64,000 nt of DNA from contig JARYLZ010000007.1 of assembly GCA_029907355.1 (NCBI GenBank), forward strand, positions 6,275 through 70,274, read 5' to 3'. This DNA is from Bacteroidota bacterium (lineage in GTDB: Bacteria; Bacteroidota; Ignavibacteria; SZUA-365). Of this stretch, positions 35,988-63,100 are shown piece by piece. The notes below the pieces were generated by a model that did no database searches, was not told the DNA's origin, and worked only from the letters and a program-made list of their open reading frames with translations. Made by a program: the position numbers and the translations under genes. Every line of letters starts with the position of its first letter. Positions within the stretch are counted from its first letter, which is position 1.

Positions 35988-36431
35988 CCGCAGCGCCGAC
36001 CATCATCCGACCGGTCCCGAGGTCCGTGCCGGCGGCTTGGTCACTGCACGAGAGAAACATCGCGATCCGGCGGGACACACGGCGTGGGCGGAGCTTCCAT
36101 GGTATTCCCTCACGCTCGAAAATGTTTCCGAGAGGGAAGCGAACGGACCTTCGTCCCTGCTTGCGTCTTCCACGCTCCCGCACCGGCATGACGGGCTGAC
36201 GGGAGCTCTTCGAACGCCATTCTAACGCATATCGGGTTCTCGATCCCGCTTCGCCGGGGAGCGTGCTCGCGACGCTCTGCCCGCTTTTCCTTGCCCGAAA
36301 AAAAACGCGCACCGCATGTCCCGGGGTTTCCGGAAACCTGGCGGTGCGCGTCGCGAACGGCATCAGCCCTGCACGCGGCCGGTCCCCCCGGTTTCGGACC
36401 GAGGGGACCAGCTATGCGGAGGGAGAAAAGG

Positions 36432-39338
36432 TCACTTGAGCAGCACCATCGAACGCATGAGTACCGCGTCTTTCGCGCGCAGGATGTACCGATACGTTCC
36501 GCTCGCGAACGCTGTCCCGTCGAACACCGCTTGCCAGCGGCCTGCTTCGAGACGGCCGCGGACGAGCGTGACGAACGTGCGGCCTGCAGCGTCGACGACC
36601 GTCAGCTCCACCTCGCAGGCTTCGGGGATATCGAAGGCGATGGTCGTGGTCGAGCTGAACGGGTTCGGGTAATTCGGCAGGAGCTGGAACTGCGACGGGA
36701 TGTTCCCCTCGATCCGTTCCACCCCCGTCGTCGCGCACTGGAGGCGTATGGTGTCCGTACAGACGACGCGCTGGTCGATCGTCGTCTCCCAGACGATCTC
36801 GAACGGCCTGTTGCCGATCTGCTTCGTGTCGAAGCATACGACGAAGCCGGTCAGACTGGTCCCCGACGCGAGCGGCGAGGTGGTCGAGAACACGGCGGAT
36901 GTCGCGTTGTTGGACACCACCCAACCGATCGGTTTGTTCACCGCCGTGATGACGACGCCCGGTGTGATGACACGGATGTGGAAGTCGTTGAGCGGCGACG
37001 CCGGCTGGTGCCGGTTGAACAGTTTGAAGTCCCAGCAGCACGCCACGCTGTCGATGAGGGAAGGCGTGACCTCGTCGCACTCGACAGGCGACGGCGCGCA
37101 CTCGATGCGGAGCGTGTCGCAGCAAACGGTTCTCTGACCCTCCGTGGTGCACCACCGCAGTTCTACGATGCCCGACGGCGGGATGCGGTCGAAGCACGCG
37201 ACGAACCCTCCGAGGTCGCCCATGTGCGGGATGCCGTTGCCGGTCGGCTCGTTGTAGTCGACGGATGTGGACGAATACGTCATCGTCCATCCGCCCGGCC
37301 CCGACGGTGTACCCGTGATGACAACGCCGGGCGTCAGGACCTCGAGGTGGAAGTCGGTCACGAGGCCTGCGGGCAGATGGCGGTTCTGCACCGTGAAGTC
37401 GTAGCAGCAATCGTCGCGCTTTTTCGGCTTCACCGAGTCGCAGGTCGTCTGCGACGGCGCGCATTGGATGTACATCCTCTCGCAGCAGATGACGTTATCC
37501 TCGCGTGTCGTGCACCAGACGATCTCGAAGACGCCCGAGGGAGGGATGTTCTCGAAACACGGCTTGAAACCGCCGACGAGGCTCCCGGTCGGGAGGCCTG
37601 AACCCGTTATCTCTTTGAAGAGGACATTGGTCGGGGACTGCGTGGAGATGGCCCACCCGGAGGGCGCAGGCGGGTTCGGCTGGATCGTGACCCCCGCCGT
37701 GACCACTTCGATATGGAAATCGGTGATCGTGCTCGGCGGCTGGTGCACATTCTTCAACACGAAATCGAAACAGCACTTGTCGATGAGGCCGATGCGTACC
37801 GAGTCGCACTTCTGCTGGACGCCTTCGCATTTGACGCGCTGGTAGCCCGAGCAGATGACCCTCCCGTCGAGTGTCGACTCCCAGTAGAAGGTCACCCACT
37901 CCGAGGTCGACTGCAGACAGAAGTCGATGCCTGTCAGGTCGTTCCCCGACGGCAGGGCCGAGGCGGCCGTGGCGATCGCCAGTTCGGCCGGTGTGAGCGT
38001 CGTCGCGGGCCACGGCGCCGACACGGTGCCCGGAACGAACGAGGCCCCGGCCGAGACGATCTTGATGTGGAAGTCGTTCAGGGGACCGTACGGCATGTGC
38101 CGGTTCTTGAGCGTCACCGAGTAACAGCAGGGCCCTCCCGGAACTTGGGTGAACACCACCGTGTCGCAGGACATCTCCACCGAACACTGGAGTTCCACCG
38201 TGTCCGTGCAGATCGTTTGGTGCTTCTCGTCGGTCGTCCTCCAGGCGATGCGGATCGGGACGGGCACACCCGTAGCGAACGCGAAGCACGTGATGAAACC
38301 TCCCAGCTGGCCGGCAGCCGGAATGGGCGTGGAACCGAAGAAGGTGACGTCGTTCGTGCCGGTCGTGAAAGTCCAGCCCGACGGGGCGGTGGGGGCGGAT
38401 GCGAACGAGACGCCCGGAGTGAGGATGGCGATGTGGAAATCGGCGATCGCCCGCTGGGACGTATTCCTGTTCGCGACGGAGAACTCGAAACAGCAGTCGG
38501 GACCGAGCTTGATGCCGACGGAATCGCAGCCGGGCGGCGTAACGGCACACTGCAAGGTGAGCGTATCGATGCAGACGGTCTGGCCGTTATATGTCGTGAT
38601 GGCCTGAACGGTGACGGACGAGGGTATACCGGGCGGTATGTTCAGGCATGTCACGAAGCCGAACAGATCCTTGCCCGGCGCGATGATGCCTCCGCCGGTC
38701 GGCGATGCCGTGAACGTGACGGACGATGCATTCACACCTCCTTGCACTACCTGCCACGCCGTAGGCAGCGTAACGGACGAGAAGGTGACACCCCGGTTCA
38801 GAATCTCGAGGTGGAAATCGTTGATCGGCACATTCCAGCTGTTCCTATTCCGAATGCCCCAGTCGTAACAGCAGTTCCCGAGGCCACGGGCGTCGATCTC
38901 GTCACAGCTCACCGCGCAACGGAGCGTGAGGGTCCCTGTCGATATGACGGTAGCGCCGTAGAGCGTCCGCCACTGGATGGAGAAGGAGCTCGCCTGGTTG
39001 GCGAAGCAGACGAGGAACCCGCCGAGGTTCATGCCGGCCCGTAAACCGACGGAGGTCGGATTCGCGGCGAAGCGGACCGTGTCCAAACTGACGCTCTCCA
39101 CGTGCCAGTTGCTCGGCGCCGCGGGTCCCGGGGTCTGCACGATGACCGCCGCCCCGGTCGAGATGACGACGATCTCGAACCCGTTGATCGGCTGCTGACC
39201 GCTGTTCCTGTTCTTCAAGAGAAAATCGTAACAGCAGCCGCTGGTCTGGGTCGCCGTGACGGAATCGGGGCGTTGTTGGGCCTGCACGGCGATGGTGAAA
39301 CAGAGGACTGCGCAGAAAAGGGAAACAAACGTTCTCAT
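36432..39338 (-). CDS. Large secreted repeat protein: 7 tandem roughly 120-aa Cys-rich repeats of an unrecognised type, followed by a T9SS C-terminal sorting domain
   Basis: 968 aa with signal peptide MRTFVSLFCAVLCFTIAVQA. Each repeat carries CC[YFW][DE]F-x-[VL]-x-NR[NH], P[IL]xDFH[IL]x[IV], GV, W, L-x-GF-x2-CF, F-x-I-x-W-x-T, [VI]C-x-DT-x2-[LI]QC and a C-D-x-V linker, giving six conserved Cys per unit. The C-terminus LLPNYPNPFSSTTTIAFDIPEACEVELTVVDAAGRTF...GTYRYILRAKD is a T9SS sorting domain. Confidence 0.75.
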   Translation of the reverse strand: MRTFVSLFCAVLCFTIAVQAQQRPDSVTATQTSGCCYDFLLKNRNSGQQPINGFEIVVISTGAAVIVQTPGPAAPSNWHVESVSLDTVRFAANPTSVGLRAGMNLGGFLVCFANQASSFSIQWRTLYGATVISTGTLTLRCAVSCDEIDARGLGNCCYDWGIRNRNSWNVPINDFHLEILNRGVTFSSVTLPTAWQVVQGGVNASSVTFTASPTGGGIIAPGKDLFGFVTCLNIPPGIPSSVTVQAITTYNGQTVCIDTLTLQCAVTPPGCDSVGIKLGPDCCFEFSVANRNTSQRAIADFHIAILTPGVSFASAPTAPSGWTFTTGTNDVTFFGSTPIPAAGQLGGFITCFAFATGVPVPIRIAWRTTDEKHQTICTDTVELQCSVEMSCDTVVFTQVPGGPCCYSVTLKNRHMPYGPLNDFHIKIVSAGASFVPGTVSAPWPATTLTPAELAIATAASALPSGNDLTGIDFCLQSTSEWVTFYWESTLDGRVICSGYQRVKCEGVQQKCDSVRIGLIDKCCFDFVLKNVHQPPSTITDFHIEVVTAGVTIQPNPPAPSGWAISTQSPTNVLFKEITGSGLPTGSLVGGFKPCFENIPPSGVFEIVWCTTREDNVICCERMYIQCAPSQTTCDSVKPKKRDDCCYDFTVQNRHLPAGLVTDFHLEVLTPGVVITGTPSGPGGWTMTYSSTSVDYNEPTGNGIPHMGDLGGFVACFDRIPPSGIVELRWCTTEGQRTVCCDTLRIECAPSPVECDEVTPSLIDSVACCWDFKLFNRHQPASPLNDFHIRVITPGVVITAVNKPIGWVVSNNATSAVFSTTSPLASGTSLTGFVVCFDTKQIGNRPFEIVWETTIDQRVVCTDTIRLQCATTGVERIEGNIPSQFQLLPNYPNPFSSTTTIAFDIPEACEVELTVVDAAGRTFVTLVRGRLEAGRWQAVFDGTAFASGTYRYILRAKDAVLMRSMVLLK

Positions 39339-49072: not shown

Positions 49073-51910
49073 TCATGCCCCGGCGTTCGGGTCCTCGATC
49101 CGGACCCTTTCCCTCAATCCGAGGTCGTCCAGTATCTGCTCGATGTCGTTCTTGAAATGTTGCACGCGACTGCTCTCCAGGGTGACCGAGAATTCGATAC
49201 CGATCCTCAGGTCCGATCCGTCCCGCAATTTCGGGAGGATTTTCGTCCCCAGACGGTTCCAGACCTCTGGAGGCACTTCGCCGGTGATGGTCAATCTCCG
49301 GGTGATGGGCGTCGCGCATACGCAGGGCTGTCGTTTGCATGTCGGGCATACGATCGGCTGGGGACACGTGCAAGGATACGTGCCGCATTTCGGGCACGTC
49401 TTCGGCAGCTGTTCGCATCGGCAGGGGATGGTCAGGCATTTCGGGCACACGGTTGCCGGTGGTTTCGCCGCGTCTTTCCATCTCTTCGCTTCGTCCTGCA
49501 AGAGCAGGAATACATCCGCCTCGAACATGATGTCCGCCGGATCGATGGGCTCCTCGAACAGCACACGATCGTACCCGCCACCCGGTTTTCGCCCGTAAGC
49601 GATCCCGAACTCTCCCCTGCCCACGAATTCGACGATTTTGTTTCGAAGGGTCGCGTCGGGGTCCAGAAGGCGCGTGAGCGAACCGTTCAGGAAGCTCTGG
49701 CGCAGTCCGGACAGCGGCCAAGCACCGGATTCACGGAACACAGGCGGCCAGTTCCGTTCAATGTATCCCGATCCGACGGACTCGCTCAAGAGGGCTTGGG
49801 ACTTCAATGCCGTTATGACCCTCCCACAGAGCGTCTCGCTCCCGCTCGAGTGACCCGCGCCGAGGTCGATGGATTTCAGCCCGTCCGCCTCCTTACTATC
49901 CGCGATGACCACGAAACGGTAACCGCCCCAGACCTCGTCTTTTGCGGCTTCCTCCGCATCCGTCACCTTCGATTGAAGTTCCGCTCGGTCGCTTCGGTCG
50001 AAATCCCCGCCGAGTGTTCCCTCGGCCACTTCCTTCGCGACGCGTTTCCATGCCAGCCACAACTCGACTTTGTCGCGGAGAACGCGGCCGGGTTTCTTGA
50101 GACACCACACGAGCGAGCCGGGATAGAGCCTTGGCGACTTGCCCCGCTGACTCGTCCACTCCGCGATCTGGCGGCGCAGATCGCCTGCTCCGGTCCATTC
50201 CGATTCCGGATCGACGATAACCAGCGTGAGACGCGGCGTATCCGGCACGGCTGTTCCATCTTCGGGGAAGGATACCACGGGTACAGTCGCCCCTCGTTCG
50301 AACTCCTTCCGGATGAGCATCCGCATCGCGGGTTTGATTTCGGATTCCTCGTCGAGCGACGCCCGCCGGTCGCTGACGACCTTCTTCAAGGTCGGCTGGT
50401 GGCTGATCTTGAACCCGTCCGAGCCCACCCGCCGAATGAAATACGATTTGTCTTCCAATGCGAAGGCGGCATTATCGATCGAGGTCGTGTCTACCGCCGG
50501 CTCACCCAGGGCAAAACGCAGCTCCGGCAGGTGGGCCACCTTGTCCACCTGCCCGCCGGAAGACTCGAAGAGAATCGTCGTCCCCACCCGGCGGTGGATG
50601 TTCTTGAGCACGCCCGTGGTGTCCGCGTCGAGCGCACGGGCATGCGAATGCGCGCCGGCGATGTCGGAATCGATGGCGGCCACGAGCCGGGATTCGCCGA
50701 GCTGGCCCAACACGACGCTGCGGAACTCCGGCACTTCCAGCGGGGCAGATCCCAGCGTGATGAGCGGCTCGCGCCGCGACTCGGTAAACCCGGTCCGGTA
50801 CGCCCAGGAAATCCACTGCGCGAGCATGGCCAGCGTCCCTCGCGTCTGCTGGTACTGCGAAAGCGCCTGCCATTTTCTCTGGAACACCGAAAGCGTCGCC
50901 GGGTGGAACGGGTAGCATGCCTCGAACCTGTTGCGCAGGAATTCCCTGGCTTTGGTCTCGGTCGTCGCGGTATCTACCGCCGTCCATTCGGGTGGGAGTT
51001 GCGCCCGCCGTTCGAAGCACCAGTCGGCGTAAGCCTTGGCGACGTTCTTCCGTACGCGATCGTTGCCCATGTCCTCGAACAGCCGGCGCCGCACGACCTC
51101 GCTGATCTCCGTCTCATCGTTGGCGATGAGGTCTTTCGCCACACGGCGTACGACCTTGGTGAGCCTTTCCTGCCACTGCATGTCCCAGTCGGTCATCTCG
51201 ACCTGGCTGCGGGGCAGGCTGATGACGGCGGCCCCGTGCGTAACACCCGTTGCTGCCACCGTCAAATTCTGAATGAAAGCGTGGAACTGCTCCGCCATGC
51301 CGCGATGGCGGTTCAGGAAATTCAGCACTTCGTCGAAAAGGAGGAGTACCTGGCCGCCCGCCGCCTGGAAAACGCGAGCCAAAGCCTCTGTACCCGGCGG
51401 CGTGGTCTTGGCCGCCGAGCCCAACTCACGCACCCCCGCCTCTCCGGCCAACTGCCGAGCGATATCGATCCACGGCGTCTCGCGCCCTTCCTGCGGGTCC
51501 CAGGCATTGCCGACGAAGACACCCACTCGCGCCTTGGGTACGGAGGAGAGCCCGGCCTCCTTCAGCAACTCGGGTACACCGTTGTATTCCGCCGCTTTGT
51601 CGCCGCACATGGCAAGGTGGTAGAGAGCCGTCAGCGTGTGCGTCTTTCCGCCGCCGAACTGGGTGATGAGCGTCATGACCGGTGCGGTGTTCTCCGTTTC
51701 ACCGGAGAGACGACGGAGCACCATACTCGTATATTCCCGCAAGGCACGAGTCCAGCACGTACGCTCGAAGAATTGTTTCGGGTCCCGGTAATCCTCGGGC
51801 GCGGTCCCGGCGATGACTTGTTCCAGGTGGATGGCGAACTCGTCCGGGTTGAACGAGCGGCCCTCGCGGACTTCCTTGCGCGGCGTGGAGACTTTGTACC
51901 AAGGATCCAT
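49073..51910 (-). CDS. DUF499-family ATPase (BrxC/PglY-like P-loop NTPase) with a Cys-rich CPxC-repeat C-terminal tail
   Basis: Walker A QFGGGKTHTLTALYHL. The N-terminal region is DUF499-like and the protein is long at about 945 aa. The start is placed at MDPWYKV (51910) because the 15 upstream codons of the track ORF are a translation of the polypurine repeat. The tail is TVCPKCLTIPCRCEQLPKTCPKCGTYPCTCPQPIVCPTCKRQPCVC. Confidence 0.8.
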   Translation of the reverse strand: MDPWYKVSTPRKEVREGRSFNPDEFAIHLEQVIAGTAPEDYRDPKQFFERTCWTRALREYTSMVLRRLSGETENTAPVMTLITQFGGGKTHTLTALYHLAMCGDKAAEYNGVPELLKEAGLSSVPKARVGVFVGNAWDPQEGRETPWIDIARQLAGEAGVRELGSAAKTTPPGTEALARVFQAAGGQVLLLFDEVLNFLNRHRGMAEQFHAFIQNLTVAATGVTHGAAVISLPRSQVEMTDWDMQWQERLTKVVRRVAKDLIANDETEISEVVRRRLFEDMGNDRVRKNVAKAYADWCFERRAQLPPEWTAVDTATTETKAREFLRNRFEACYPFHPATLSVFQRKWQALSQYQQTRGTLAMLAQWISWAYRTGFTESRREPLITLGSAPLEVPEFRSVVLGQLGESRLVAAIDSDIAGAHSHARALDADTTGVLKNIHRRVGTTILFESSGGQVDKVAHLPELRFALGEPAVDTTSIDNAAFALEDKSYFIRRVGSDGFKISHQPTLKKVVSDRRASLDEESEIKPAMRMLIRKEFERGATVPVVSFPEDGTAVPDTPRLTLVIVDPESEWTGAGDLRRQIAEWTSQRGKSPRLYPGSLVWCLKKPGRVLRDKVELWLAWKRVAKEVAEGTLGGDFDRSDRAELQSKVTDAEEAAKDEVWGGYRFVVIADSKEADGLKSIDLGAGHSSGSETLCGRVITALKSQALLSESVGSGYIERNWPPVFRESGAWPLSGLRQSFLNGSLTRLLDPDATLRNKIVEFVGRGEFGIAYGRKPGGGYDRVLFEEPIDPADIMFEADVFLLLQDEAKRWKDAAKPPATVCPKCLTIPCRCEQLPKTCPKCGTYPCTCPQPIVCPTCKRQPCVCATPITRRLTITGEVPPEVWNRLGTKILPKLRDGSDLRIGIEFSVTLESSRVQHFKNDIEQILDDLGLRERVRIEDPNAGA

Positions 51911-51925
51911 GATCAACCTACGGTT

Positions 51926-51960
51926 GGAAGGCAAAAGGAAAAAGGTAAAAGGCAAAAGGG
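51926..51960. repeat. Polypurine repeat copy a (GGAAGGCAAAAGGAAAAAGGTAAAAGGCAAAAGGG), in inverted orientation to copy b
   Basis: I read this copy directly. It lies between the DUF499 start and the four-helix-bundle stop. Its reverse complement nearly matches copy b at 52335-52382. Confidence 0.7.
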
Positions 51961-51962
51961 TG

Positions 51963-52334: not shown

Positions 52335-52382
52335 TTCCTTTTCCCTTTTGTTTTTTCCTTTTGCCTTTTTCCTTTTTCCTTA
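52335..52382. repeat. Polypyrimidine repeat copy b (TTTCCTTTTCCCTTTTGTTTTTTCCTTTTGCCTTTTTCCTTTTTCCTTA)
   Basis: It lies between the four-helix-bundle start codon and the DUF1156 stop codon. Copies c (about 52978-53015) and d (about 53094-53127) have the same orientation and sit inside the DUF1156 gene about 108 bp apart. Confidence 0.7.
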
Positions 52383-55352
52383 TCTCGGCACTCCCAGAAG
52401 CATCGCATCCAGCAGGCGCTTCTCTTCGCTCGCTTTCGGGTACAACGCCGAGAGGGCATTTGACAGCCGCAGGAAATCCGGGCCGCGTTCCATCTCGGCT
52501 TTTATGAGGGTCCGGAGTGCGTTGGTATGGCCCCCCGCTTGAAGGAGCATCGCGGCATGGACACGGTCGAGCGTCGTCGGACCATGTCCATCACGGCTAT
52601 TCAGAGAATGCAGAGATTCCTCATCCATAATGATCCTCTTTCCTCTGTGCCCTCTGTGTCTCCGTGGTGATTCTTCCATCTCGGGGAAGAGCACTAGCTG
52701 AAGGTTCTTCTTCGGGTCTTGAACGCTCCAGTCGGCCACAGCGTCCGCGCCATCCTCGCCGAAGAGCTGCCTGGCGCGTTCTGACACGGCCATGAGCCGC
52801 ACCACGCCTTTCTTCGTCTCGATGATGCGGCCCTCCCACTTGGGAAGGTCAATCCCCAGAGGCTGAGCGAAACGGCGCACCACGTCGAAGACAAGACTGA
52901 AACCTTTGGGCTTGCTTTTCGACTCGACGTCCTCGTCATCCTCCTCTTCCACCCAATCCCCGACCTCCTCATCGTTAATTCTTTTACCTTTTTCCTTTTC
53001 CCTTTTTCCTTCCCCATCTGTGACCTGCAGCGTCCACAGAAACAGTGCCGTCAGGCGTGCGTCCTCTTCCAACTCCTGCCCCGCCCCCTCCATTTTTCCT
53101 TTTACCTTTTTCCTTTTTCCTTCCCCCATCACCTGCTCCAGCGCCGTGCGGCCGACGACTTCCCATACTTTCTCCAGGAACTCCGCCAGTTTCACCTCGC
53201 GCCCCTCGGCGGTTTCGACTTTGCGGTAGCGGCTGAAGATTTCCAGCGCCGGGCCGATGCAGGCGAAGACGAGGTCTGCGCCGCGAATGCCCTCGCCCTG
53301 CAGCCGCTCCATCCAATCACCCACGCGCTTGGGAAGTTCTCGCAACACCTCGCCCCAGTCGCCCACCGGCGCATCCTCGGGCCGCGGGCGGCAGACGAGG
53401 TGGACGCTGGTTTCAAGTGCTGCGTAGCCCTGGCCGCGCATGCGCTGTCTGCGTTCGGTGGCGATGGGCCACGAACCGGTTGTGCGCCATCCCGCCTGTA
53501 CCAGCGCCGAGACGAGCGCTTCCCAGCGGTCGGTGTCCTTGTGGGCGAAAACAACCGAGGCCACTCCATCCTCGCGGATAATCCGCTTCATACGGCCAAA
53601 GGCCTCATACATGCGGCTCTCGTACCACTGACGGTCATGCACGCCGCTGTCCTTGACCGCACGGTTTTCTGTAAGTTCGCGGGCTTTTTCGGTCTCCAGG
53701 GCCGTGAAGGCCTGCGGCAGGCGATTCTTCAAGCCCAGCCGGAGCCAGCTGTAGAAAAAGTCTGAAAGGTGCGCGTAGGGAATCTGGTTGGCGTAGGGCG
53801 GGTCGGTGAAGACCAAGTCCACCGATTCTTCCGGCAGGACAGCGTCCAGCACGTTGGCCAGGAGCGGCGACGAGGGTTGGTAGCGGACGGTAGAGAGGTT
53901 CCGAAGCGCGCTCTGGACACTGCGGATGGAGTAGCCCAGGCCCTCGCAGTTCGGGCTCAAGGGATTGCCTTCCACAAAGTCGGCGCGCATGGGAACGCCG
54001 GAACCCTGTATGAAGATGGACGTTACCCCTTCCGAGAGCCAGACGCAAAGAGAGGTGTGGTACTGGCCATTGTCCGAGTAAGCCGCATAGAGGCAGGCGG
54101 CGAGACCGTCGAGCAGGTCTTTCTCCTTGGTCTTCTTGGCCGCTTCCTTGAGCGCGTCCTCGATGACCTCGTGCAGTACCCAGCGTGAGAAGCGTTGACG
54201 CGGGGCCAGGACTTCGACCCAAGTCTTGATTCCGTATGGACCAGGAGGAAATGCCCGCGTGTCGTTTTGCGGAAACCCGGCCATCTCAAACCTGATGTCC
54301 TTAGCTTTCACAAAAGCAGCAGAGAACGCTTTGAGGTCTTTAGGTGTCGGTGCGGAATATTCCTTTCCTCGGCTGTTTGTATTTCGCCACACGACCGCAA
54401 GAAGCATGGCATCATCCGCTCCGCCGCGCTTGTCGCGCAGTTGCGCCTGAACTCGTTCGCGCGGGGTAACCATGTGGCACTTCGGGCAGGTGGCGTTGTT
54501 CCCGGCAACGGTGCCGCGTTCGACCTCCTTGTCGCTGGAAGGCGTGAAGACCTCAATCTTCGGCTCCAACGATCCCTTGGGATATGTGATGCGCAGCGCT
54601 TTCTTGCGGCCCTTGGCCTGCGAAAGCCAGAGGTTACGCACGAGCGGAATGGTTGCCCCGCACCCGGCGGCCTCGCATTTGACGGTTCGCGCCCAGAGAT
54701 AGGCGAGCGGCTTCCGCCTGTACGCATCCGCCGGGTAGTACTCGCCCAGCCGCCTCTCTGCCTCTCTCAACACCCATTGTGACCATTCCTCGAACAGGTC
54801 GGCTAGTTGCGGTCCTTTGCGAGCACACCATTCGAGCGCGATCTTCAAGAGAAGCCACGCGACGGGATTGATGTCGGACGCAGTCACCTCGCAGCCGAGG
54901 CGCTGAGCTTCCAGCGGGATGGAGCCGCCGCCGGAGAACGGGTCCAGGACGTGCGGGACCGCACCGTGCGCGGCCTTCACCAGCTCGCGGGCCATGGAGA
55001 CGTAGCCTGCCACGCGGACGATGTCCCAGTTGGCGATGTCGGCCACGAAGGCCAGAAGCGCCTTTTGAAGGTCGGCGTCCTTCGGACCGACCTTCTTGTT
55101 CTGCTGGAGCGCCTTCCTCGCCGCCGCCTTGAACTCCGCCGGGCAGAGCGGGTCGCACGGGTCGGGGAGAAGCAGCGTCAGGAGAAGCGACCGGCAGGAG
55201 GCCAGCGGACGCCGCGCCCACCACGAGTGGAGAAGCGAGAGGTGGCCGCTGTCCACGCGGGTCTTGCGGTTGTTCTCCTCGACGCAGGCGTCGTTCACAC
55301 GCGACAGCGGAAAGTCCACCTCTGCCAGGCGTTTGCATTCTTTCGGGATCAT
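52380..55352 (-). CDS. DUF1156-family N6-adenine DNA methyltransferase (Zn-ribbon-containing)
   Basis: The N-terminus KRLAEVDFPLSRVN...SGHLSLLHSWWARRPLA is the DUF1156 signature. The SAM/catalytic region shows FSGGGSIPLEA and the DPPY motif (LVFTDPPYANQIPY). Cys pairs fit a Zn ribbon (CEAAGCG, CPKCH). A K/E/G-rich internal duplication is encoded by repeat copies c and d. Confidence 0.85.
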   Translation of the reverse strand: MIPKECKRLAEVDFPLSRVNDACVEENNRKTRVDSGHLSLLHSWWARRPLASCRSLLLTLLLPDPCDPLCPAEFKAAARKALQQNKKVGPKDADLQKALLAFVADIANWDIVRVAGYVSMARELVKAAHGAVPHVLDPFSGGGSIPLEAQRLGCEVTASDINPVAWLLLKIALEWCARKGPQLADLFEEWSQWVLREAERRLGEYYPADAYRRKPLAYLWARTVKCEAAGCGATIPLVRNLWLSQAKGRKKALRITYPKGSLEPKIEVFTPSSDKEVERGTVAGNNATCPKCHMVTPRERVQAQLRDKRGGADDAMLLAVVWRNTNSRGKEYSAPTPKDLKAFSAAFVKAKDIRFEMAGFPQNDTRAFPPGPYGIKTWVEVLAPRQRFSRWVLHEVIEDALKEAAKKTKEKDLLDGLAACLYAAYSDNGQYHTSLCVWLSEGVTSIFIQGSGVPMRADFVEGNPLSPNCEGLGYSIRSVQSALRNLSTVRYQPSSPLLANVLDAVLPEESVDLVFTDPPYANQIPYAHLSDFFYSWLRLGLKNRLPQAFTALETEKARELTENRAVKDSGVHDRQWYESRMYEAFGRMKRIIREDGVASVVFAHKDTDRWEALVSALVQAGWRTTGSWPIATERRQRMRGQGYAALETSVHLVCRPRPEDAPVGDWGEVLRELPKRVGDWMERLQGEGIRGADLVFACIGPALEIFSRYRKVETAEGREVKLAEFLEKVWEVVGRTALEQVMGEGKRKKVKGKMEGAGQELEEDARLTALFLWTLQVTDGEGKREKEKGKRINDEEVGDWVEEEDDEDVESKSKPKGFSLVFDVVRRFAQPLGIDLPKWEGRIIETKKGVVRLMAVSERARQLFGEDGADAVADWSVQDPKKNLQLVLFPEMEESPRRHRGHRGKRIIMDEESLHSLNSRDGHGPTTLDRVHAAMLLQAGGHTNALRTLIKAEMERGPDFLRLSNALSALYPKASEEKRLLDAMLLGVPR

Positions 55353-57322
55353 TGCCCACCTCCTCGCTGTGGTTTGAGGGCAATGATCTTTTCGACGATG
55401 CCCTTCAGGGTCACGCTTATCTTCCCATCAGCCGATGCCTTCTCGACGATACGCTGGAGAACGACGGGGTTCTTCAACGCATCCTTCTTCTTTTGGATGC
55501 CGAGTTGCGTTTGGGCTTCCGAAAGCAACCGGCCAAACAGGTCTTTGCCGATTTCCTCTTCAAGCGTAGTCTCGAGTTTGACCTTGAAACAGGCGTATTT
55601 GTCTTTCACACCGCATGGCCAGTCTTCTTCCGACTCGCCGACAAGCCGCAGCAGCTTGCGGTTGTCTTCAGGAATAGCACCATCTTCACCATTATCGCTG
55701 TCCCAGACGACGTAAACCGGGATGCCGAGTCGCCGGAAAATTACCAGAGGGCGATCCAAGTTGTTCTTTCCGATGCAGGGGATAACCGAGATGCCTTCGC
55801 TGTCGAAATTGTGCCCCATCGACGCGGCTACGCCGAGAATGGCGGCGCGGTCATCCTCGCCTTCGACCAGCACCGCAACATCGGCAAAGAATCCTTCGTT
55901 GAGCCACGGAGTCATCACAGCCTGAAGACGGGGGCGAAGCGTATCGGCGGTGTACTTGGCACCTTGTTTGCCTCCCGCAATCCATATTTCTTCGGCTACT
56001 GCGCCCAGTTCTGCCTTGATAGCCTTTGTCACCCTCGGTTTCCCGGCGACATCATCGAACTTCCGCAAGAGGCGGATTTGCTCGAAGCGGTCGAGTCCGA
56101 CAAAAAGCGGGGAGTGCGTAGAGTAGAGGACCTGCGTCCGCTTCGCCACGCCGGGGATCGTGCCTTGCGACAGTTTCAGAAGGACGGACGCCATGTGCCG
56201 CTGGCGGCTCGGGTGTTGGTAGAGTTCCGGCTCCTCGATGGCAAGAACCAGGCTGGGGAGCTGCGGCTCACCCTGTTCGGGAATCTCCGCCTCCGACGCA
56301 AAGCCCTCTTCGGTTGCGGACTCAACGCCCTTGGCCGCAACGAGATGCTGCAACATGGTCAGGATGAAGGCGCGCTGGAGACCGTGGCCCGTCCGCTGGA
56401 CCGAGGACTTGTATCCGTCTTCGTGAAGTTTGACCTCGGCCTTCGGCAAGGGAAAATCAATGTCAACGAGTTTGGCCCATTCCATCGAGACGTTCGCTTC
56501 GGGGGCATATTGTCGTAGGGTTTCGGATAGCTGCGTCTGAAGCCCGGAAAGCTCCGTGAGTCTTGCGGGGTCCATGATTTCGCGGTACTTCTTCTGCGTC
56601 TCGTCCTTCAGCGTCACGAATTCCTTCCGGTTGGTGAGTGCGCGCCGAACCACGAGGTCCATGATTTCCGTGACGCATGATCCCTTGCCTTCGGTGGCGT
56701 CATCCGACGCATCCCGGACGGCGGGGATGTGGATGAAGCGCGTGTGACGGCCGAGGTAGCCGTTACCGACTTCCGTGAATCCGAAAAATTGCCCATCGTC
56801 GCGCATGCGGGAACATGAACCTGGGTTGGCGGCCTCCCACTTTCTCAGTTCTTCCTCGACTTGATCCGCGTTCCGAACTGTAGGAAGTGAAGAGTAATTT
56901 GGCTTGCTCCTGATTTCGTTGTATTTGTTCCTGATCTCCGATTTTCCACCTGCGTTGCGAACTTCGGCAAATTCCGGATTCTGGAGTTTCATGCCATGGT
57001 AGGTTCCCGACTTCTTGGCCGAGAAAGAGAAGACTCTGGCAACGGTGAGGTCGTTGCCATCGAGATACGGCGCAAACAGGGCGTTCTCCTCGGTGCCGAG
57101 GTCGGTGAACGTCAAGGCGATTTCGATTTCCCTACTTGTGTCCTCCGCGTAGAAATCCTCAGCCGAGACAGCCGCCTTCGGGTCGTAGAACAACTCCATC
57201 GCCCGAAGGAAGGATGACTTGCCGGTGCCGTTGCGCCCGACAAGGACCGTCAGGTTGTCGCAATCAATCCGCTCGTCGAGAACCGAACGGAAGTTTTTAA
57301 CATGGATGGCCTTGACAATCAT
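55349..57322 (-). CDS. OLD-family nuclease: N-terminal ABC-type ATPase plus C-terminal Toprim domain
   Basis: Walker A VLVGRNGTGKSSFLRA, Walker B LAIEEPELYQHP and a Toprim block VLVEGEDDRAAILGVA...VIPCIGKNNL. Its stop overlaps the DUF1156 start by 4 nt. Confidence 0.8.
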   Translation of the reverse strand: MIVKAIHVKNFRSVLDERIDCDNLTVLVGRNGTGKSSFLRAMELFYDPKAAVSAEDFYAEDTSREIEIALTFTDLGTEENALFAPYLDGNDLTVARVFSFSAKKSGTYHGMKLQNPEFAEVRNAGGKSEIRNKYNEIRSKPNYSSLPTVRNADQVEEELRKWEAANPGSCSRMRDDGQFFGFTEVGNGYLGRHTRFIHIPAVRDASDDATEGKGSCVTEIMDLVVRRALTNRKEFVTLKDETQKKYREIMDPARLTELSGLQTQLSETLRQYAPEANVSMEWAKLVDIDFPLPKAEVKLHEDGYKSSVQRTGHGLQRAFILTMLQHLVAAKGVESATEEGFASEAEIPEQGEPQLPSLVLAIEEPELYQHPSRQRHMASVLLKLSQGTIPGVAKRTQVLYSTHSPLFVGLDRFEQIRLLRKFDDVAGKPRVTKAIKAELGAVAEEIWIAGGKQGAKYTADTLRPRLQAVMTPWLNEGFFADVAVLVEGEDDRAAILGVAASMGHNFDSEGISVIPCIGKNNLDRPLVIFRRLGIPVYVVWDSDNGEDGAIPEDNRKLLRLVGESEEDWPCGVKDKYACFKVKLETTLEEEIGKDLFGRLLSEAQTQLGIQKKKDALKNPVVLQRIVEKASADGKISVTLKGIVEKIIALKPQRGGGQ

Positions 57323-57327
57323 GACCG

Positions 57328-57540
57328 TTACCTCACCTGCCTGTTGGAATACCGCCCCTTGATGTGGTTGTGAAAATACGACCCCTTTGATGCGGCTCGC
57401 ATGAAGTCCTGATAAACGGTCTCTGGTACACCAGAGTACTGGTAAACGCCTCCGCTATTGAACTCCACCTCCAGCGTCCTCGACGCTGGGTCATAGCCCA
57501 CGGAACGGATATTGCTTGAGCGGACTGGTCTTCTGTTCAT
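57328..57540 (-). CDS. KTSC-domain protein
   Basis: 70 aa reading [57 protein letters not shown], which matches the KTSC domain pattern. Its start overlaps the RmuC stop by 4 nt. Confidence 0.7.
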
Positions 57541-58964
57541 GCTTGGTTGTCCTCCTTCACCTCCGGCGCGGAGATCGCCCGGGGCGTCGTCTCAACAGGT
57601 GATAGAGGCGGTATCTCGTTGCCGGTCGCGGCCCCCAAGTCCTTGAACTTGCGGGCGGCGGGCAGAACCCGGGCTTCCATCGAGCCGACGGCGCTGTTGT
57701 AGGCCGCGTTGGCCTTCTCCAGACCTTTGCCGATTGCAGCAAGGTGCTCAGCCATGGTTCTCATGCGTTCGTAGAGATCCTTGCCAAGGTTACTAATTTC
57801 CTGGGCATTCTTCGCGATTTGTTCTTGTCGCCATCCATAAGCCACGGCTCGCAGAAGCGCGATAAGCGTAGTGGGGGTCGCCAGAACTACGCGCTGCGCC
57901 AGACCGTCCTCAATGAGTGAGTGGTCGGCGTCCACCGCCGCGCCGAAGAACGACTCGCCGGGAATGAACATGACCACGAACTCGGGGGCCTTGGGAAACT
58001 GGCTCCAGTACGCCTTCGAGGCAAGGGTGTTCATGTGACTGCGAACTTGCGCTGCGTGCCGCGCCATGGCCGCATTGCGCACGTCTTCGGACTCGGCGGC
58101 GACGGCGTCAAGGTACGCCTCCAGCGAAACCTTCGCATCCACGACGATCTCCCGTTCGGCTGGCAGCCGTATGAGCAGGTCCGGACGCAGTCGCCCTTCC
58201 TCGGTGCCGACGGTCACCTGCTCGGCGAAATCGCAATGTTCGGACATCCCCGCCAATTCCACCACGCGACGCAGGGTCATCTCGCCCCAGCGGCCGCGTA
58301 CCTGCGGCTTGCGCAGGGCCGTGACGAGATTCGCGGTCTCTCTCTGCAACTGCTGCTGGCTCGTAGACAGGAGTCTCAAGTGCTCTGTCAGGCCGGAATA
58401 GGCTTCCTGGCGGTTTTTCTCAATCGTGCGGACGTATTCCTCGAACTTGGCAATGGACTCCGCCAGCGGCTTGACCATACCTTGAATGGCTTCCTGACGT
58501 TTGCCGAGATCGCCCCTGGCATCCGTCAGCACTTTGTCGAGCGTTTCCTGCGCCAGTTTCAGGAACGCGGTCGTGCTGGTGTTGAGCGTGTCTCCGGCAA
58601 GAGCCTTGAAGGTGTCCGTGAGCTTGGCCTTGGCCTCCTCCAAGAGCTTCTTCTCTTCCTGAAGCCGCTGGACGGTCTCCGCCAACTGAGTTTCGGCCTT
58701 CACCCTCGCGCTCGTCTCAGCAGCCAGTTGATCCCTGACCTTTGTGAAGTCCTCGGAGGCTTTCTGATTCTGCGAACGCAGTTCGGCAATAGTCCCTTCC
58801 AGCCCTGAGGCGCGCCCCTCGGCGGTATTCGCCCGGCGCTCGGATTCCTCCAACTTGGCGGTCATGAGCCTTGTGGCACGAGCGGTTGCAAGTAGCCAGG
58901 CCACAAGGCCGCCAATCAGCGCACCGGCCAAAACATACAATAGATAAATCATCGCAGCATTCAT
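57537..58964 (-). CDS. rmuC: DNA recombination protein RmuC
   Basis: From [19 protein letters not shown]: an N-terminal TM anchor, a long coiled-coil, and a C-terminal RmuC nuclease-like region ([18 protein letters not shown]...[11 protein letters not shown]...[15 protein letters not shown]). The track ORF extends 119 codons upstream through the YhcG gene and is ignored. Confidence 0.8.
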
Positions 58965-60169
58965 TCTCCGCCTCCTCCGCGTCTCTGCCGTACAATCATC
59001 CGCCGTTCCAGCGCCGCCCGCGTCCGTTCGATCTCGGCCGCCAATTCCTTCTCGTCCGGCAAGGCGGTTTTGTATTCCGCCGCCAGCACTTTGTTGGGGA
59101 GCCGGTCGAGGGCGTAGCGCACCACGGCCTCGTCCTTCTGGGCGCAGAGGATCAAGCCGACGGGCGGGTTCTCGCCGTCGCGGGTCCAGTGTTCCTGGGC
59201 ATAATTGAGATAGAGATGCATCTGGCCCGCGTCGGCATGGGTGAACTTGCCGATTTTGAGTTCGACAATGACCAGGCACTGCAACCGGCGATGGAAGAAG
59301 ACGAGGTCCACACGATACCACTCATCGCCGATGCGCAGGCGTTTCTGGCGGCCGGCAAAGCAGAAGTCGCCGCCGAGTTCCAGAAGGAAGGTCTCCAGGT
59401 GCCGGATCAGTGCTTCTTCGAGGTCGGACTCGGAGTACTCGTCCTTGAGGCCGAGGAACTCCAGCACATAGGGGTCCTTAATCTCCTCCTCGGGAGTGAT
59501 GCGGTCTTCCGGGAGGGCTTTCTGCCCTTTGGCGAGCATGGCGGCTTTATTGTGAGAGAGCGCGGTCCGTTCGTAGAATTGGGAGTTGATCTGCCGGTCG
59601 AGTTGCCGGACCGACCAGCCGCCCCGCAGGGCTTCCGTTTCGTAGAACCGGCGGGCGTTTTCGTTTTTGACCGCCAGCAGGCGGACGTACGCCGACCACG
59701 GGAGGGGGAAGTGAAAGGAGACGTTCTTCAGGAACTGTTCGATGGCGCCGTGCCCGGTTTCTCTTGATGGTGCCGAAAGAATCGGAAGGCTGGATTCTGC
59801 AGACGGCGTCTGCAGAATCTTAGGTTTGTCGGATTCCGCAGACGGTGTCTGCAGATTTGGCCATGCCAGGTAGAATGCCCTCATTTGCCACACATTGCGC
59901 ACGGAAAATCCTTTGCCATAGCGGGCGGACAAATCGGCCGCCAGACGCTCGATCAATTTCTCGCCGTACTCCGCCCGAACCCCTCCCTTCTGCTCGCTTT
60001 CGACGATCCGCCTGCCGATCAGCCAATAGGCAGCCGTCATGACGGAATTCACCGAGCGTGCCGCTGTTCTTCTCGCCGCAACGATAACCTCGGAAACATC
60101 GCCGAGAATCGCGCCATACGCCGAGTCGGCAACGACTGCAGGTGGAGTTCCGGGCGACTTGGGCCTCAC
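58961..60169 (-). CDS. YhcG/DUF1016-family nuclease with the PD-(D/E)xK restriction-endonuclease fold
   Basis: 402 aa. The N-terminal DUF1016-like helical region is followed by a C-terminal nuclease core ([45 protein letters not shown]). Its stop overlaps the rmuC start and its start overlaps the helicase stop, 4 nt each. Confidence 0.75.
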
Positions 60170-63100
60170 TTTTCTTCCTCCTCCGTGTTCGCTGTGCCTC
60201 TGCGGTGAACATCATATCCCGGCGAATCTTCCCGCACCTGCATGGGTCGCGTCATGGCGTCCACTTCCAGCCAATAGTGTTGGACCTTCTTGACCTCATG
60301 CCACGGGAAGCGCGCCGGATCGCGGATGGGCTCCTGGAGCGTGGGCTTGCCAGCGCAGTTCGTGACGATGTAGAGCCAGTAGCAGTCGCGCCGGTCCTCG
60401 GCGACGCGGCGCTCGTTGGGCGTGAGGAGGATCGTCCCGGTCGGATCGGCCAATCCTTTGACCTCGATGAGCCGCAGTTCGCCGGAATTGAGGTCGAGGC
60501 TGGTGATATCGTAGCCGAGGTTCTTCTCGTGGACGTCGTAAACCTGGCGTCCTTTGGAACGCTCGTACTCCATGACGACGCGCATGGCGGCGGCTTCCGT
60601 TTCGGCGCTGGGCTGGAGGTGGCGCACTTCGGGCAAACGGCGATCCGGGTGCGGCAGGACGAGGACACTGGCGATGCGCTCGACGGCCTGGAGCGTGAGC
60701 GACTGCTGCTGCCGGAGTTCCTTGCGGCGGCGGTCGCGCCGCGTCCGGAGTTCGTCGTGACGGTTCACGGCCTGGGCGAGTCGTCCTTCGGCCCCAGGCT
60801 CCTTCCGGTCGATGGCCTCCTGGGCCTTTCCGATTTCCTCGTCCGCCCGCTGGATGAGTTCCGTGAGCGACCATTCCACATGCTGCTCGATGCGTTGCAC
60901 TTCGGCGGTCCGTTCCTTGCGGACCTCTTCCAGGAACGGCCGGAAGGCGTTTTCCTGAAGCCAAGCGAGGGCTTCCGGCTCGAAGGCGACCGGCGGCAAA
61001 GGATCGGGGGAAGCAGCGGGGATGAGATCCGCCAGGATCGTTTCACCACAGAGACGCAGAGAGCACCGAGGACCATTCGTGTTTCCCTCTTTGTTCTCGC
61101 TGTCTCCGTGACGGGTCTTCAAATCCACAGCGAAGAGACGTTCACGGACCACCTGTCCCAACCCGTCCACCACGCGGGCGCGGTAGAAATCGATGCGTGA
61201 CGGCTCTTCGTGTTGGAGGGAGTAGAAGCAGGCACCTTTGCCGAGGGCCTCGGCGGCCATGGCGCACGTGTGCCGGCGGACGGCTTCGAAGAGGGGATGG
61301 CCGGGCGTGACCCACTCGAGATTGTTCTTTTCAGCCGTGTCGCGGTCTGTCGAGCAGGGGGGATAGCGTGGAGCCAGCGGGGGGAGCTTCCAATCCGCCG
61401 CCCGTTCGTACTCCTTCAGGAACGAGGGCGTTCGGCCGGGTTCGAAAGTGTGAGGGAGATGCGGAACGTCCTTGATATCGAGGTCTGCATAGGAGGCGGC
61501 CTCGCGGATGAAGCGGGCGACGGTTTCCGGCACGACGCGGCGTTCCTGGGCGCGAGCCCGTCGCTCGATGAGCATCTCCAGATTGAGTTTCTTGGACGCC
61601 AAGCCCTCCAAAGCGTTCCGGCAGATGTCACGGAATCGGCCCTCGTCGACGTTCTTGAGCAGGCGTTCCTCGAGGTCGGCATCGCCGAGTTTCCCGGCGT
61701 AGTAGTCCCGCAGGATGCGCTCCACGTGGGCCGCAGGCAGGATTTCGCCGACGACGTTGAAGACGGCGTCGTCGTCCAGCGCGTCGCGGATTTCCTGGAG
61801 TTTCTCCAGCAACCGCTGCAGCACACTGCCCTCGATGGTGTTCGTGGCCACGAAGTTGAAGATCAGACAGTCCTTCCGCTGGCCGTAGCGATGGATGCGG
61901 CCCATGCGCTGTTCGAGGCGGTTGGGATTCCAGGGGATGTCGTAGTTGAACAGGATGTTGCAAACCTGGAGGTTGATGCCTTCGCCCGCCGCCTCGGTGG
62001 CCACGAGAATCTGGATTGCGCCCTCGCGGAATTGCTGCTCCGAGTAGAGCCGCGTGCCCGGCTCGTCGCGGGAACCGGGTTTCATGCCGCCGTGGATGCA
62101 GCCGACGCGGAATCCCCAACCCTTCAGCTTCCCGACGAGGTAGTCGAGCGTGTCCTTGAATTCGGTGAAAATGAGCAGACGCTTGTCCGGCTGGTCGAAG
62201 AAGCCTTCTCCGTGGAGGAGGTCCTTGAGTTTCGACAACTTCGCTTCGCAGTCGCCGTTTTCCACGGCCTGAGCCAGGTCTGCCAGTCGGCGGAGTTCGG
62301 AAATCTCCTCCCGCACCTGGTCGGCGTTCCTGGCCAGCGTGATGGCTTCGAGCAATTCCTCCATGCGCTCGCGCTCGCTCTCTTCCATTTCCTCGATCTC
62401 TTCCGGGTCCGGCAGATCGGGCAGATCGAGGCTGACGAGTTCCTGAGCCTTCTTCAGACCTTCCTCCAGCCGGCGGGCGCGTTTCTCGAGGCTGTGACGC
62501 ATGGCATACGTGCTGGAAGCCAGCCTGCGTTGGTAGAGGGACATCAGGAAACCGACCGCACGGGCACGGGGATCGTCGCCCTGGGCGGCGGCCTTGGCGC
62601 TCTGACGCTTCACGAATCGCGTAACCTCCCGGTAGAGCTCGAATTCCGCGCCATCGAGTTGGAAATCCACGGTGTGGGGGATACGCTTCGTGAAGATCTT
62701 CTCGGTGACCCAGGTGCCATCCGGCCGCCGCTCCGGGAAGTAGACCATCGCTTCCTTGGTGCGGCGGAGATAGAACGGTGCGCGACGACGCTCCATCGCC
62801 TCGCGGATCGACCGCACGTCCGCATAGGCGTCCGGTTCGAGGAGTTGAAGGAACAGGGAGAAGTTCTCCGGGTCGCCCTTGTGCGGCGTCGCCGTGAGCA
62901 TCAAGATGTGGTCCGATGTATCCCTCAGGAGCTCGCCGAGGGCGTAGCGGGCGGTCTTGCGGGCCGGAGGCGTCCAGGACATGCGGTGCGCCTCGTCCAC
63001 GATGACGAGGTCCCAGTGGACCTGCCTCAAGCCGGGGAGGATCTCCGTCCGCTTTGCGAGGTCCAGCGACGTAATGACCTTATTCCGCTCCAGCCACTGG

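Follow-up and report, generated by a model that had tools for sequence, protein, structure and literature searches.

The closest described systems belong to a few groups of beta-sandwich proteins. YcnI and the other DUF1775 proteins (Pfam PF07987; PDB 7me6, 7mek, 8um6, 3esm) include a Cu(II) chaperone, YcnI itself, made up of one domain and a C-terminal membrane helix and encoded in cop/ycn neighbourhoods of Firmicutes, Actinobacteria and Proteobacteria. Its Cu(II) site is formed by the free amino terminus and the side chain of the mature N-terminal His27, together with Glu50 and Trp137, and around 90% of the DUF1775 proteins are single-domain (PMC8424229). The CLIPPER domain, or DUF11 (PF01345; PDB 9ifr), is an isopeptide-stapled stalk domain of fibrillar adhesins, in which a Lys-Asn isopeptide bond with a catalytic Asp makes the cross-link and an OmpA-like domain serves for anchoring. 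CLIPPER is the precedent for tandem stalk domains with covalent staples, and the study on it left open whether covalent cross-links besides isopeptides exist on surface proteins of other phyla (bioRxiv 10.1101/2025.04.25.650565). The cohesins of types I and II, from cellulosome scaffoldins and C. perfringens glycosidases (PDB 2jh2, 2vo8, 2w1n), are of a similar fold class and are found in Gram-positive cell-wall contexts. Regarding secretion, T9SS type-A cargo (Por_Secre_tail, PF18962 / TIGR04183) can be either anchored or released (PMC4804311).

We analysed a window of 64 kb, which here means the whole stretch of DNA. The ORF at 36432..39338 (minus strand) encodes a product of 968 aa with a signal peptide, seven abutting units of around 120 aa and a tail of around 94 aa, whose features are as follows:

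36432..39338, minus strand: repeat-protein gene, complete (ORF list; 968 codons plus stop, ATG start, stop codon at 36432-36434).
39279..39338, minus strand: Sec-type signal peptide by inspection, aa 1-20, MRTFVSLFCAVLCFTIAVQA then QQRPDS.
38907..39269, minus strand: unit 1, aa 24-144; four Cys, predicted pairs C35-C141 and C36-C111, without the C1-C5 pair; GFE replaces DFH.
38529..38906, minus strand: unit 2, aa 145-270; predicted disulfides C145-C256, C156-C264 and C157-C231 (profile match and Cys co-variation).
38169..38528, minus strand: unit 3, aa 271-390; predicted disulfides C271-C377, C282-C385 and C283-C351 (profile match and Cys co-variation).
37809..38168, minus strand: unit 4, aa 391-510, the most divergent; predicted disulfides C391-C496, C404-C504 and C405-C474 (profile match and Cys co-variation).
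37443..37808, minus strand: unit 5, aa 511-632; eight Cys, predicted pairs C511-C618, C522-C626 and C523-C594, extra pair C609-C619 (profile match and Cys co-variation).
37080..37442, minus strand: unit 6, aa 633-753, the unit modelled; eight Cys, predicted pairs C633-C739, C644-C747 and C645-C715, extra pair C730-C740.
36717..37079, minus strand: unit 7, aa 754-874; predicted disulfides C754-C860, C767-C868 and C768-C835 (profile match and Cys co-variation).
36435..36716, minus strand: predicted T9SS type-A C-terminal sorting domain, aa 875-968; motif LLPNYPNPFSSTTTIAF...SGTYRYIL...MVLLK.
36305..36317, minus strand: candidate intrinsic terminator from a consensus scan, a 5-bp stem then a T-run, 115 nt past the stop codon.

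The count of terminator-like sites was at or below the shuffle expectation, so the site at 36305..36317 is only a candidate, and the promoter scan was likewise not above chance.

The initial annotation had divided this protein into seven tandem repeats of around 120 aa, and this division is borne out. The CC doublets (aa 35, 156, 282, 404, 522, 644 and 767) and the DFH motifs (aa 176, 302, 424, 542, 664 and 787) are spaced so that they delimit seven units of 118-126 aa each, joined by linkers of 3-6 residues and 25-46% identical to one another. A non-circular profile, made from 159 units of unrelated giant proteins and leaving out the window protein with its two nearest relatives, recovered 7/7 units with 59-82 bits (E 1e-20 to 1e-27), against at most 6.4 bits for 200 shuffled versions of the protein. 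No tandem repeat was found at the DNA level in the gene, and therefore the repeats represent an ancient duplication and not an assembly artefact. Full-length homologues are available (P0001-P0005), and the unit-by-unit comparison with P0001 gave 51-70% on the diagonal versus 28-52% off it, the units being positionally orthologous. These homologues, together with the high-confidence fold, rule out a spurious ORF in GC-rich DNA. The contig L002 carries an orthologous locus whose gene order matches that of the window. The neighbouring genes encode S9 and M16 peptidases, a DUF3795 protein and a membrane protein of no assigned family; we rejected a conserved operon, because these neighbours are shared by the closest orthologue only. 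Scans of a genome collection with the full protein and with the AroB-AroA fusion gave no relative, and no record was identical to the window protein.

The details of the repeat needed some correction. The same ordered motifs had been claimed for every repeat, but unit 4 departs at several motifs and unit 1 departs at DFH. The six-cysteine signature holds for units 2-4 and 7; however, unit 1, which is without the linker Cys and the 'IC.DT' Cys, has four, and units 5 and 6, with an additional W-C-TT / vC-C pair, have eight. In a set of 561 units the residues conserved in at least 50% were D2, C14, C15, N22, G41, P50, G52, W53, G75, F81, C84, W98, T100, C108, D110, T111 and C116, and those conserved across the whole family were the N of 'NR[NH]', W53 and the Cys pairs.

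Modelled by AF2, unit 6 has nine beta strands (pLDDT 96.4), and this 9-strand sandwich falls into the YcnI/DUF1775 - CnaA/CLIPPER - cohesin-like fold class. The repeat had been described as unrecognised, and actually no Pfam or NCBIfam model covers it: scans of the whole protein, its 7 units and 110 diverse units gave no consistent match. PF07987 matched neither the 7 nor the 110 units even at E<=1, and the DUF11 Pfam model had no match among the 110, where one unit matched DUF7507 (E 0.067) and one TIGR01451 (E 0.003). The PDB sequence search with the 7-unit profile gave no match, and YcnI was reached only by the 110-unit profile (E 9e-6), which also matched CLIPPER/DUF11 (E 1.5e-3); hhalign against the DUF1775 alignment gave 92.7% probability (E 4e-7, 71 columns). 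The proposal of a new family therefore stands, but the failure to match it to any known repeat does not, since these matches place it within a known beta-sandwich lineage, remotely related to YcnI and CLIPPER/DUF11, rather than as a new kind of domain.

Among solved relatives the Cu(II) chaperone YcnI comes closest, in sequence as well as in structure. The fold is common to both and the remote homology is detectable; nevertheless, YcnI is without cysteine staples and has one domain, whereas here the domain is repeated 5-10 times and followed by a T9SS tail, in proteins of Ignavibacteria/Bacteroidota-type organisms. With CLIPPER our protein has in common that the 9-strand sandwich is probably used as a tandem stalk domain of long surface proteins, and the beta9 Cys of the unit aligns with the first Cys of the CLIPPER beta9 CTTC disulfide. 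The cross-link differs, with three to four predicted cystines per unit in place of the isopeptide, and so does the anchoring, with a T9SS tail in place of the OmpA-like domain. We searched the 561 units for a conserved Lys in beta1 and found none, which, as judged from sequence, argues against a Lys-Asn isopeptide.

The initial annotation had also suggested disulfides, and the cysteines do behave as partners. The cysteine count is even in every unit of the 968-aa protein, and in the 561 units, which are related sequences and therefore not independent, the counts of Cys presence/absence were 346/1/6/208 for profile positions 15-84, 475/6/12/68 for positions 14-116, 266/1/99/195 for positions 1-108 and 70/2/2/487 for positions 99-109. 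The pairwise pattern recurs among the 46 closest units. Since the cysteines co-vary in pairs, three disulfides per unit are implied, except for units 5-6 (four) and unit 1 (two), and these would presumably form in the exported protein. Two of the predicted disulfides per unit would fasten the N-terminal strands to the final one. The C1-C5 pair is absent from the first unit in 51/56 family proteins, and a 5-unit subfamily has the C1-C5 clamp in the last unit only. This clamp is thus not universal, and any argument for an inextensible rod holds for the clade of the window protein and not for the whole family.

A family of T9SS cargo repeats had been suggested, and it is real: a search of 1.84 billion proteins gave 388 cluster representatives (E<=1e-3), nearly all of them T9SS-tailed. 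Most members are repeat-only with 5-10 units, and around 80 cluster representatives have a signal peptide, 5-10 units and a tail. Other domains occur in some members: an arylsulfotransferase-like propeller (ASST) precedes the array in P0005 and a Laminin_G_3 lectin domain does so in P0086, and giant members have 2-3 units with Big_9, SdrD_B, Cadherin_5, PKD and VWA domains and a T9SS tail. The members are currently labelled 'hypothetical' or by the T9SS tail alone.

Regarding export, the signal peptide was recognised by inspection: a basic n-region, around 14 hydrophobic residues and V-Q-A preceding the predicted cut, without a lipobox. Unit 1 starts at aa 24, right behind it, there is no additional domain in the protein, and in homologues the first unit begins at aa 22-40. 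Besides this signal peptide, the protein resembles T9SS type-A cargo in its C-terminal tail of around 80-90 aa, possibly a 7-strand beta-sandwich, with the NYPNPF...SG.Y.Y motif, the difference being that its passenger belongs to a new repeat family. The claim of export through a T9SS C-terminal sorting domain holds in part. The window protein's own score is below the curated cut-offs (PF18962, 16.5 bits for the whole protein and 22 bits for the tail alone, cut-off 27; TIGR04183, 18 bits, cut-off 23), but its tail is homologous to tails that pass them. It is 30-63% identical to 16 other tails, PF18962 is matched by 17/17 homologous tails (best E 4.6e-12), tails of distant family members reach 30-41 bits, so that relatives pass the Pfam cut-off, and the tail profile matches the solved Por CTD chain 8glj_D (E 0.007). 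These results support a secreted protein with a Sec-like signal peptide and a probable T9SS type-A tail. No T9SS components were seen among the ORFs scanned within the 64-kb window, where a second ORF, at 4597..5829 (plus strand), ends in the same tail type (50 bits).

We consider it probable that the protein is a Sec-exported, T9SS-targeted rod of the bead-on-a-string type, with seven disulfide-stapled beta-sandwich domains that form a surface stalk or fibril. After periplasmic oxidation each domain would contain three cystines, or four in the case of units 5-6 and two in that of unit 1. One would connect the first residue of the unit to strand beta9, another the first Cys of the CC doublet to the Cys just past beta9, and another the second Cys of the doublet to beta7. 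There are only 3-6 residues between units and therefore tension along the rod would pass from one cystine to the next, skipping around 105 of the around 120 residues of each unit, which would make the array nearly inextensible and protease-resistant. By analogy, the cystines would do the job of the isopeptide bonds in CLIPPER and pilin stalk domains. The C-terminal domain would take the folded protein through the T9SS and, following the known T9SS pathway, the protein would end up either attached to the outer surface or set free from it. The role is most likely structural, that of a stalk, spacer or fibril projecting from the cell. The analysis shows the gene, its repeats, their fold class and remote homology, the Cys co-variation and the family with its architectures, whereas the formation of the disulfides, the surface localisation and the mechanical role are inferred. 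Any adhesive specificity may reside in the N-terminal unit, which is divergent and differently stapled. Seven units with a T9SS tail, presumably used as an anchor, correspond to the tandem stalk repeats and surface anchor of the fibrillar adhesin class (Monzon et al.; PMC8286594); however, unlike that class, the protein has no distinct adhesive domain.

The remote relationship to a copper chaperone raises the question of whether the units handle metal, perhaps as a multivalent extracellular binder or chaperone of copper or another metal, with a YcnI-like site that might use the clade-specific D-F-H and N-R-H. The nearest solved relative is YcnI, the N-R-[NH] motif coincides in position with the YcnI Cu ligand Glu50 (site per PMC8424229), and the Asp and His of DFH are each conserved at 0.92 within the clade of the window protein. 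Nevertheless, DFH had been called invariant and it is so only in that clade, being lost in the wider family, which argues against a family-wide metal or catalytic site; we therefore rejected it as such. In units 1-3 the NRH motif has Asn in place of its His, and unit 1 has GFE. A copper site of the YcnI type was rejected too, because its ligands are absent: Glu50 falls on profile position 23, where there is Arg or a variable residue, internal repeats do not have a free N-terminus, and unit 1 begins with QQRPDS. Furthermore, the predicted C1-C5 cystine occupies the equivalent location, where the YcnI N-terminus contacts Trp137 near the chain end. The neighbouring genes encode peptidases and are not cop genes, and a tandem array is at odds with a DUF1775 family that is mostly single-domain. 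We regard metal handling as highly improbable.

It is also very unlikely that the array is a scaffold in which each unit binds a partner module of other secreted proteins, giving a multi-enzyme complex on the cell surface. The fold class is like that of the cohesins (PF00963), but a sequence relationship could not be detected, a dockerin partner is missing, no disulfide pattern is shared, and their Gram-positive cell-wall contexts are unlike that of our protein. Less easily dismissed, although still unlikely, is a matrix, S-layer-like or soluble protein whose tail is cleaved and whose rod ends up free in the medium or in the biofilm matrix. Either fate is open to type-A cargo (PMC4804311), there is no separate head domain, and disulfide stapling would be equally protective for a free extracellular protein. 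Against release, the enzyme - array - tail fusions of the relatives suggest that the array spaces a functional head from the surface.

Thus, a domain family missed by current annotation is now defined, with 388 cluster representatives, more than 560 units, a profile and a confident model at hand. It is tied to DUF1775/YcnI and CLIPPER/DUF11, and in this way the copper-chaperone fold is connected with adhesin-stalk domains. The biology as such is of a known kind: tandem beta-sandwich stalks are common on T9SS cargo, and no mechanism or ligand is newly established. The clean Cys co-variation, however, amounts to a disulfide map with N-to-C strand clamps that is open to testing and bears directly on the cross-link question of the CLIPPER study. 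We tentatively propose, as a possibility somewhat short of an even chance, a cystine counterpart of the isopeptide bond in the YcnI/CLIPPER-type sandwich lineage, in which the first strands are held to the last by a pair of disulfide clamps, the T9SS rods of 5-10 units are mechanically inextensible and protease-proof, and the un-clamped N-terminal unit is the sole force-sensitive or ligand-binding element. If true, surface fibrils of Gram-negative bacteria would have a new strategy of intramolecular cross-linking, and it would share its ancestor with a copper chaperone.

According to the ORF list, the repeat gene runs along the minus strand at 36432..39338, begins with ATG and encodes 968 aa. 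We set the unit borders of this protein at its C-D-x-V junctions. The seven units so obtained measure 118-126 aa and align from end to end at pairwise identities of 25-46 %; the CC doublets lie at aa 35, 156, 282, 404, 522, 644 and 767. A non-circular profile of 159 units, taken from distant giant proteins only, with the window protein and the two relatives closest to it left out, recovered all seven units with 59-82 bits (E 1e-20 to 1e-27), whereas the top score over 200 shuffles of the protein was 6.4 bits. Therefore, the seven tandem repeats of the initial annotation are confirmed at this locus; the unit is absent from the remaining reading frames of the 64-kb window. Tandem Repeats Finder detected no ~360-bp periodicity in the DNA of the gene, which means that the repeats are old duplications, and an assembly artefact is ruled out as their source. 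The six cysteines ascribed to every repeat are present in units 2, 3, 4 and 7, but the count is four in unit 1 and eight in units 5 and 6; outside the units, the signal peptide contributes two cysteines and the tail one. The units abut, with 3-6 residues between the last Cys and the first Cys of the next unit (AVS, AVTPPG, SVEMS, EGVQQK, APSQTT and APSPVE). We consider this anatomy, and the relationships described below, very probably correct.

Regarding the family of the unit, no Pfam or NCBIfam model consistently matched the seven units or a set of 110 diverse units (mutual identity under 40 %), as expected from the suspicion of a new family, and the Pfam models of DUF1775 and DUF11 did not detect the unit. 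A word-indexed search of 5.8 billion proteins returned only five sharing the repeats. The wider family emerged when 1.84 billion cluster representatives were searched exhaustively with the profile: 388 reached E<=1e-3, of which 174 had E<=1e-10 and 77 had E<=1e-30. The AlphaFold2 model of unit 6 (46-unit alignment; pLDDT 96.4, pTM 0.88) is all-beta with nine strands. The 110-unit profile matched chains of YcnI (DUF1775, PF07987, a copper-chaperone family) with E 9e-6 and CLIPPER (DUF11, PF01345, an isopeptide-stapled stalk domain of fibrillar adhesins) with E 1.5e-3, all else having E >=0.4, and these matches rank the relatives as structural comparison of the unit with the PDB does. In reciprocal hhalign against an alignment of DUF1775 proteins gathered with a YcnI fragment, the same profile reached a probability of 92.7 % (E 4e-7, 71 columns, beta3-beta8). 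Since two independent lines agree on the relative, the unit is a divergent offshoot of the sandwich lineage of YcnI/DUF1775 and CLIPPER. An unrecognisable fold is ruled out by the structural comparison and the YcnI matches. The supposed novelty was thus lost at the superfamily level, where the match is confident, and survived at the family level, where there is none: the unit is a new family with a known fold. It differs from YcnI/DUF1775 and DUF11 in its cystine pattern and its tandem T9SS context, and the copper site has been lost.

The conserved residues were assessed in 561 units of 162 proteins aligned to the family profile. The DFH motif, initially called invariant, is kept in a single clade, which comprises the window protein, P0001 and P0002 and conserves D at 0.92, F at 0.75 and H at 0.92; in the window protein it lies at aa 176, 302, 424, 542, 664 and 787, and unit 1 reads G-F-E there. 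Outside that clade, G, R, E, A, S or K mostly stands in place of the Asp, and R, T, S, E or Q in place of the His. Because of this restricted conservation, DFH is a lineage feature and not the functional core of the domain. The residues kept across the family are N22 (0.83-1.0), W53 (0.78-1.0), the cysteines, D2 and D110-T111. The equally 'invariant' NR[NH] held for its Asn, but position 23, its Arg, has that residue at a frequency of 79 % within the close clade and varies elsewhere.

The CC doublet, together with DFH and NR[NH], had suggested disulfides or metal ligands. The presence and absence of cysteines over the 561 units co-vary pairwise, which bears out the disulfides, and the same pairing is seen in the 46 closest units; the family cysteines are accordingly predicted disulfide partners. 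We placed the pairs on the strands of the unit 6 model:

Predicted cystines in profile numbering, with units having both Cys / first only / second only / neither; the counts come from related sequences and the events are not independent, although the pattern is unambiguous
1-108: 266 / 1 / 99 / 195; first residue of the unit to beta9
14-116: 475 / 6 / 12 / 68; first doublet Cys to the Cys just past beta9
15-84: 346 / 1 / 6 / 208; second doublet Cys (beta2) to beta7
99-109 (optional; W-C-TT / vC-C): 70 / 2 / 2 / 487; beta8 to beta9

The optional pair tends to displace 15-84, which is missing in 63 of the 72 units with 99-109; in the window protein, units 5 and 6 hold both, as few units do. In total, 22 cystines are predicted across this protein. 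Two features of the relatives agree with this map: the 1-108 pair sits where the N-terminus of YcnI meets Trp137 near the chain end, and the beta9 C-T-T-C disulfide of CLIPPER has its first Cys aligned to position 108. Of 56 repeat-only proteins that could be assessed, 51 lack the 1-108 pair in the first unit, whereas 100 of 285 other units lack it. In the 5-unit subfamily, the N-terminus-to-beta9 cystine occurs in the tail-proximal unit only.

Regarding export, aa 1-20 read by inspection as a Sec-like signal peptide (MRTFVSLFCAVLCFTIAVQA|QQ) and hold no lipobox. The tail, which is the final 94 residues with the pattern NYPNPF...SG.Y.Y...LLK, is by itself below the curated thresholds for type-A sorting domains: PF18962 gives 16.5 bits for the whole protein and 22 bits for the tail alone (cut-off 27), and TIGR04183 gives 18 (cut-off 23). 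Nevertheless, identities of 30-63 % tie it to 16 other tails, all of which match PF18962 (best E 4.6e-12), and so the proposed T9SS sorting domain stands by homology and not by its own score. Remoter family members have tails of 30-41 bits or a type-B CHU_C tail instead. The tail model is a 7-strand sandwich (pLDDT 85.6). A second tail of this kind (50 bits with the tail profile, at 5581-5820) ends the ORF 4597..5829 (+), and therefore the source organism appears to encode further T9SS-type cargo. There is also a weak tail-like match (18.6 bits) at 3272-3487 (+).

Position by position, the units are 51-70 % identical to those of P0001, and 28-52 % off the diagonal; the terminal units also match those of the 10-unit P0002. 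Because similarity follows position, the array is old: its units are constrained individually and it has expanded in the middle, and this comparison gave no sign of concerted evolution among the units. Around 80 cluster representatives share the plan of signal peptide, 5-10 units and a ~95-aa tail. In other members an arylsulfotransferase-like propeller precedes seven units (P0005) or a Laminin_G_3 domain is present (P0086), and in giant proteins, the longest of 4230 aa, 2-12 units are combined with Big_9, SdrD_B, Cadherin_5, PKD, VWA and DUF642 domains and T9SS tails. Named members include P0004, from an Ignavibacteria MAG, and Saprospiraceae proteins annotated 'gliding motility-associated C-terminal domain'. 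The contig of the closest homologue, P0001 (L002), and the window share the order M16 peptidase, small ORF, ~285-aa membrane protein, repeat gene and convergent gene. More distant members share none of these neighbours, and therefore there is no operon-level clue. In the window, the predicted membrane protein (39633-40487, minus strand, 284 aa, without a Pfam family) is encoded on the strand of the repeat gene, 294 bp upstream of it; its place beside P0001 is held by a 285-aa gene, and the gene is absent beside P0004 and P0005.

Other genes and ORFs of the window include a complete Hma-type defence system (49073-63678, minus strand), which, with the nuclease and RmuC genes that interrupt it, has the appearance of a small defence island, and two bacterial, partial AROM-like fusions of the shikimate pathway:

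49073..51955, minus strand: HmaC, AAA+ ATPase/DUF499 (323 bits)
52380..55352, minus strand: HmaB, DUF1156 adenine methylase (296 bits)
55349..57322: OLD-family nuclease (AAA_15 + TOPRIM), inside the Hma system
57537..59321: RmuC-family protein, inside the Hma system
60166..63678, minus strand: HmaA, SNF2 helicase + NOV_C (582 bits)
26584-28581, plus strand: shikimate kinase fused to a shikimate dehydrogenase N-domain
29902-32271, plus strand: 3-dehydroquinate synthase fused to EPSP synthase
6460-8847, minus strand: long ORF, putative gene of 795 aa, unmatched in Pfam at the thresholds applied
45193-47085, minus strand: long ORF, putative gene of 630 aa, unmatched in Pfam at the thresholds applied
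44490-45395, plus strand: long ORF, putative gene of 301 aa, unmatched in Pfam at the thresholds applied
13717-16332, minus strand: 871 aa, C-terminal SpoIIE/PP2C phosphatase domain
9666-11843, plus strand: 725-aa apiosidase-like glycosidase with DUF5060

The window protein is of secretion type and consists only of seven sandwiches, covalently stapled by prediction, and a T9SS tail; elsewhere in the family the units stand between functional heads and the tail. By analogy, we lean slightly towards a stiff stalk or fibril. The cystines would form in the periplasm once Sec has exported the chain; the rod, already folded, would then leave through the T9SS, and the tail would be removed, with the protein anchored or released (PMC4804311). 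In units 2-7 the incoming chain would be bonded at residue 1 to beta9; eight residues past that bond a Cys would be bonded to beta2, and 3-6 residues on comes the first Cys of the next unit, so that tension would skip ~105 of the roughly 120 residues per unit. These cystines would follow the same logic as the CLIPPER isopeptide, which experimentally raises the melting temperature from ~45 to ~80 C and confers protease resistance (bioRxiv 10.1101/2025.04.25.650565). The un-clamped, divergent N-terminal unit is the candidate tip.

A released matrix or S-layer-like protein, instead of an anchored stalk, seems unlikely. A docking scaffold of the cohesin type is suggested by fold similarity, its sole support, and we consider it improbable. 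The kinship with YcnI also raises metal binding. In YcnI, Cu(II) is bound by His27, the N-terminal residue of the mature protein, through its free amine and its imidazole, and by Glu50, with Trp137 stacking on the metal (PMC8424229). However, the HMM alignment puts Glu50 at position 23, the Arg or variable residue of N-R-[NH], a free N-terminus is impossible for internal repeats, and unit 1 starts QQRPDS. We therefore reject a YcnI-type copper site, which has been lost in the unit, and since the defining ligands are absent a YcnI-like metal binder is hardly credible.

The finding is no surprise to specialists. Nevertheless, the domain deserves a family of its own in the databases, and the idea of a disulfide clamp deserves a biophysical test.
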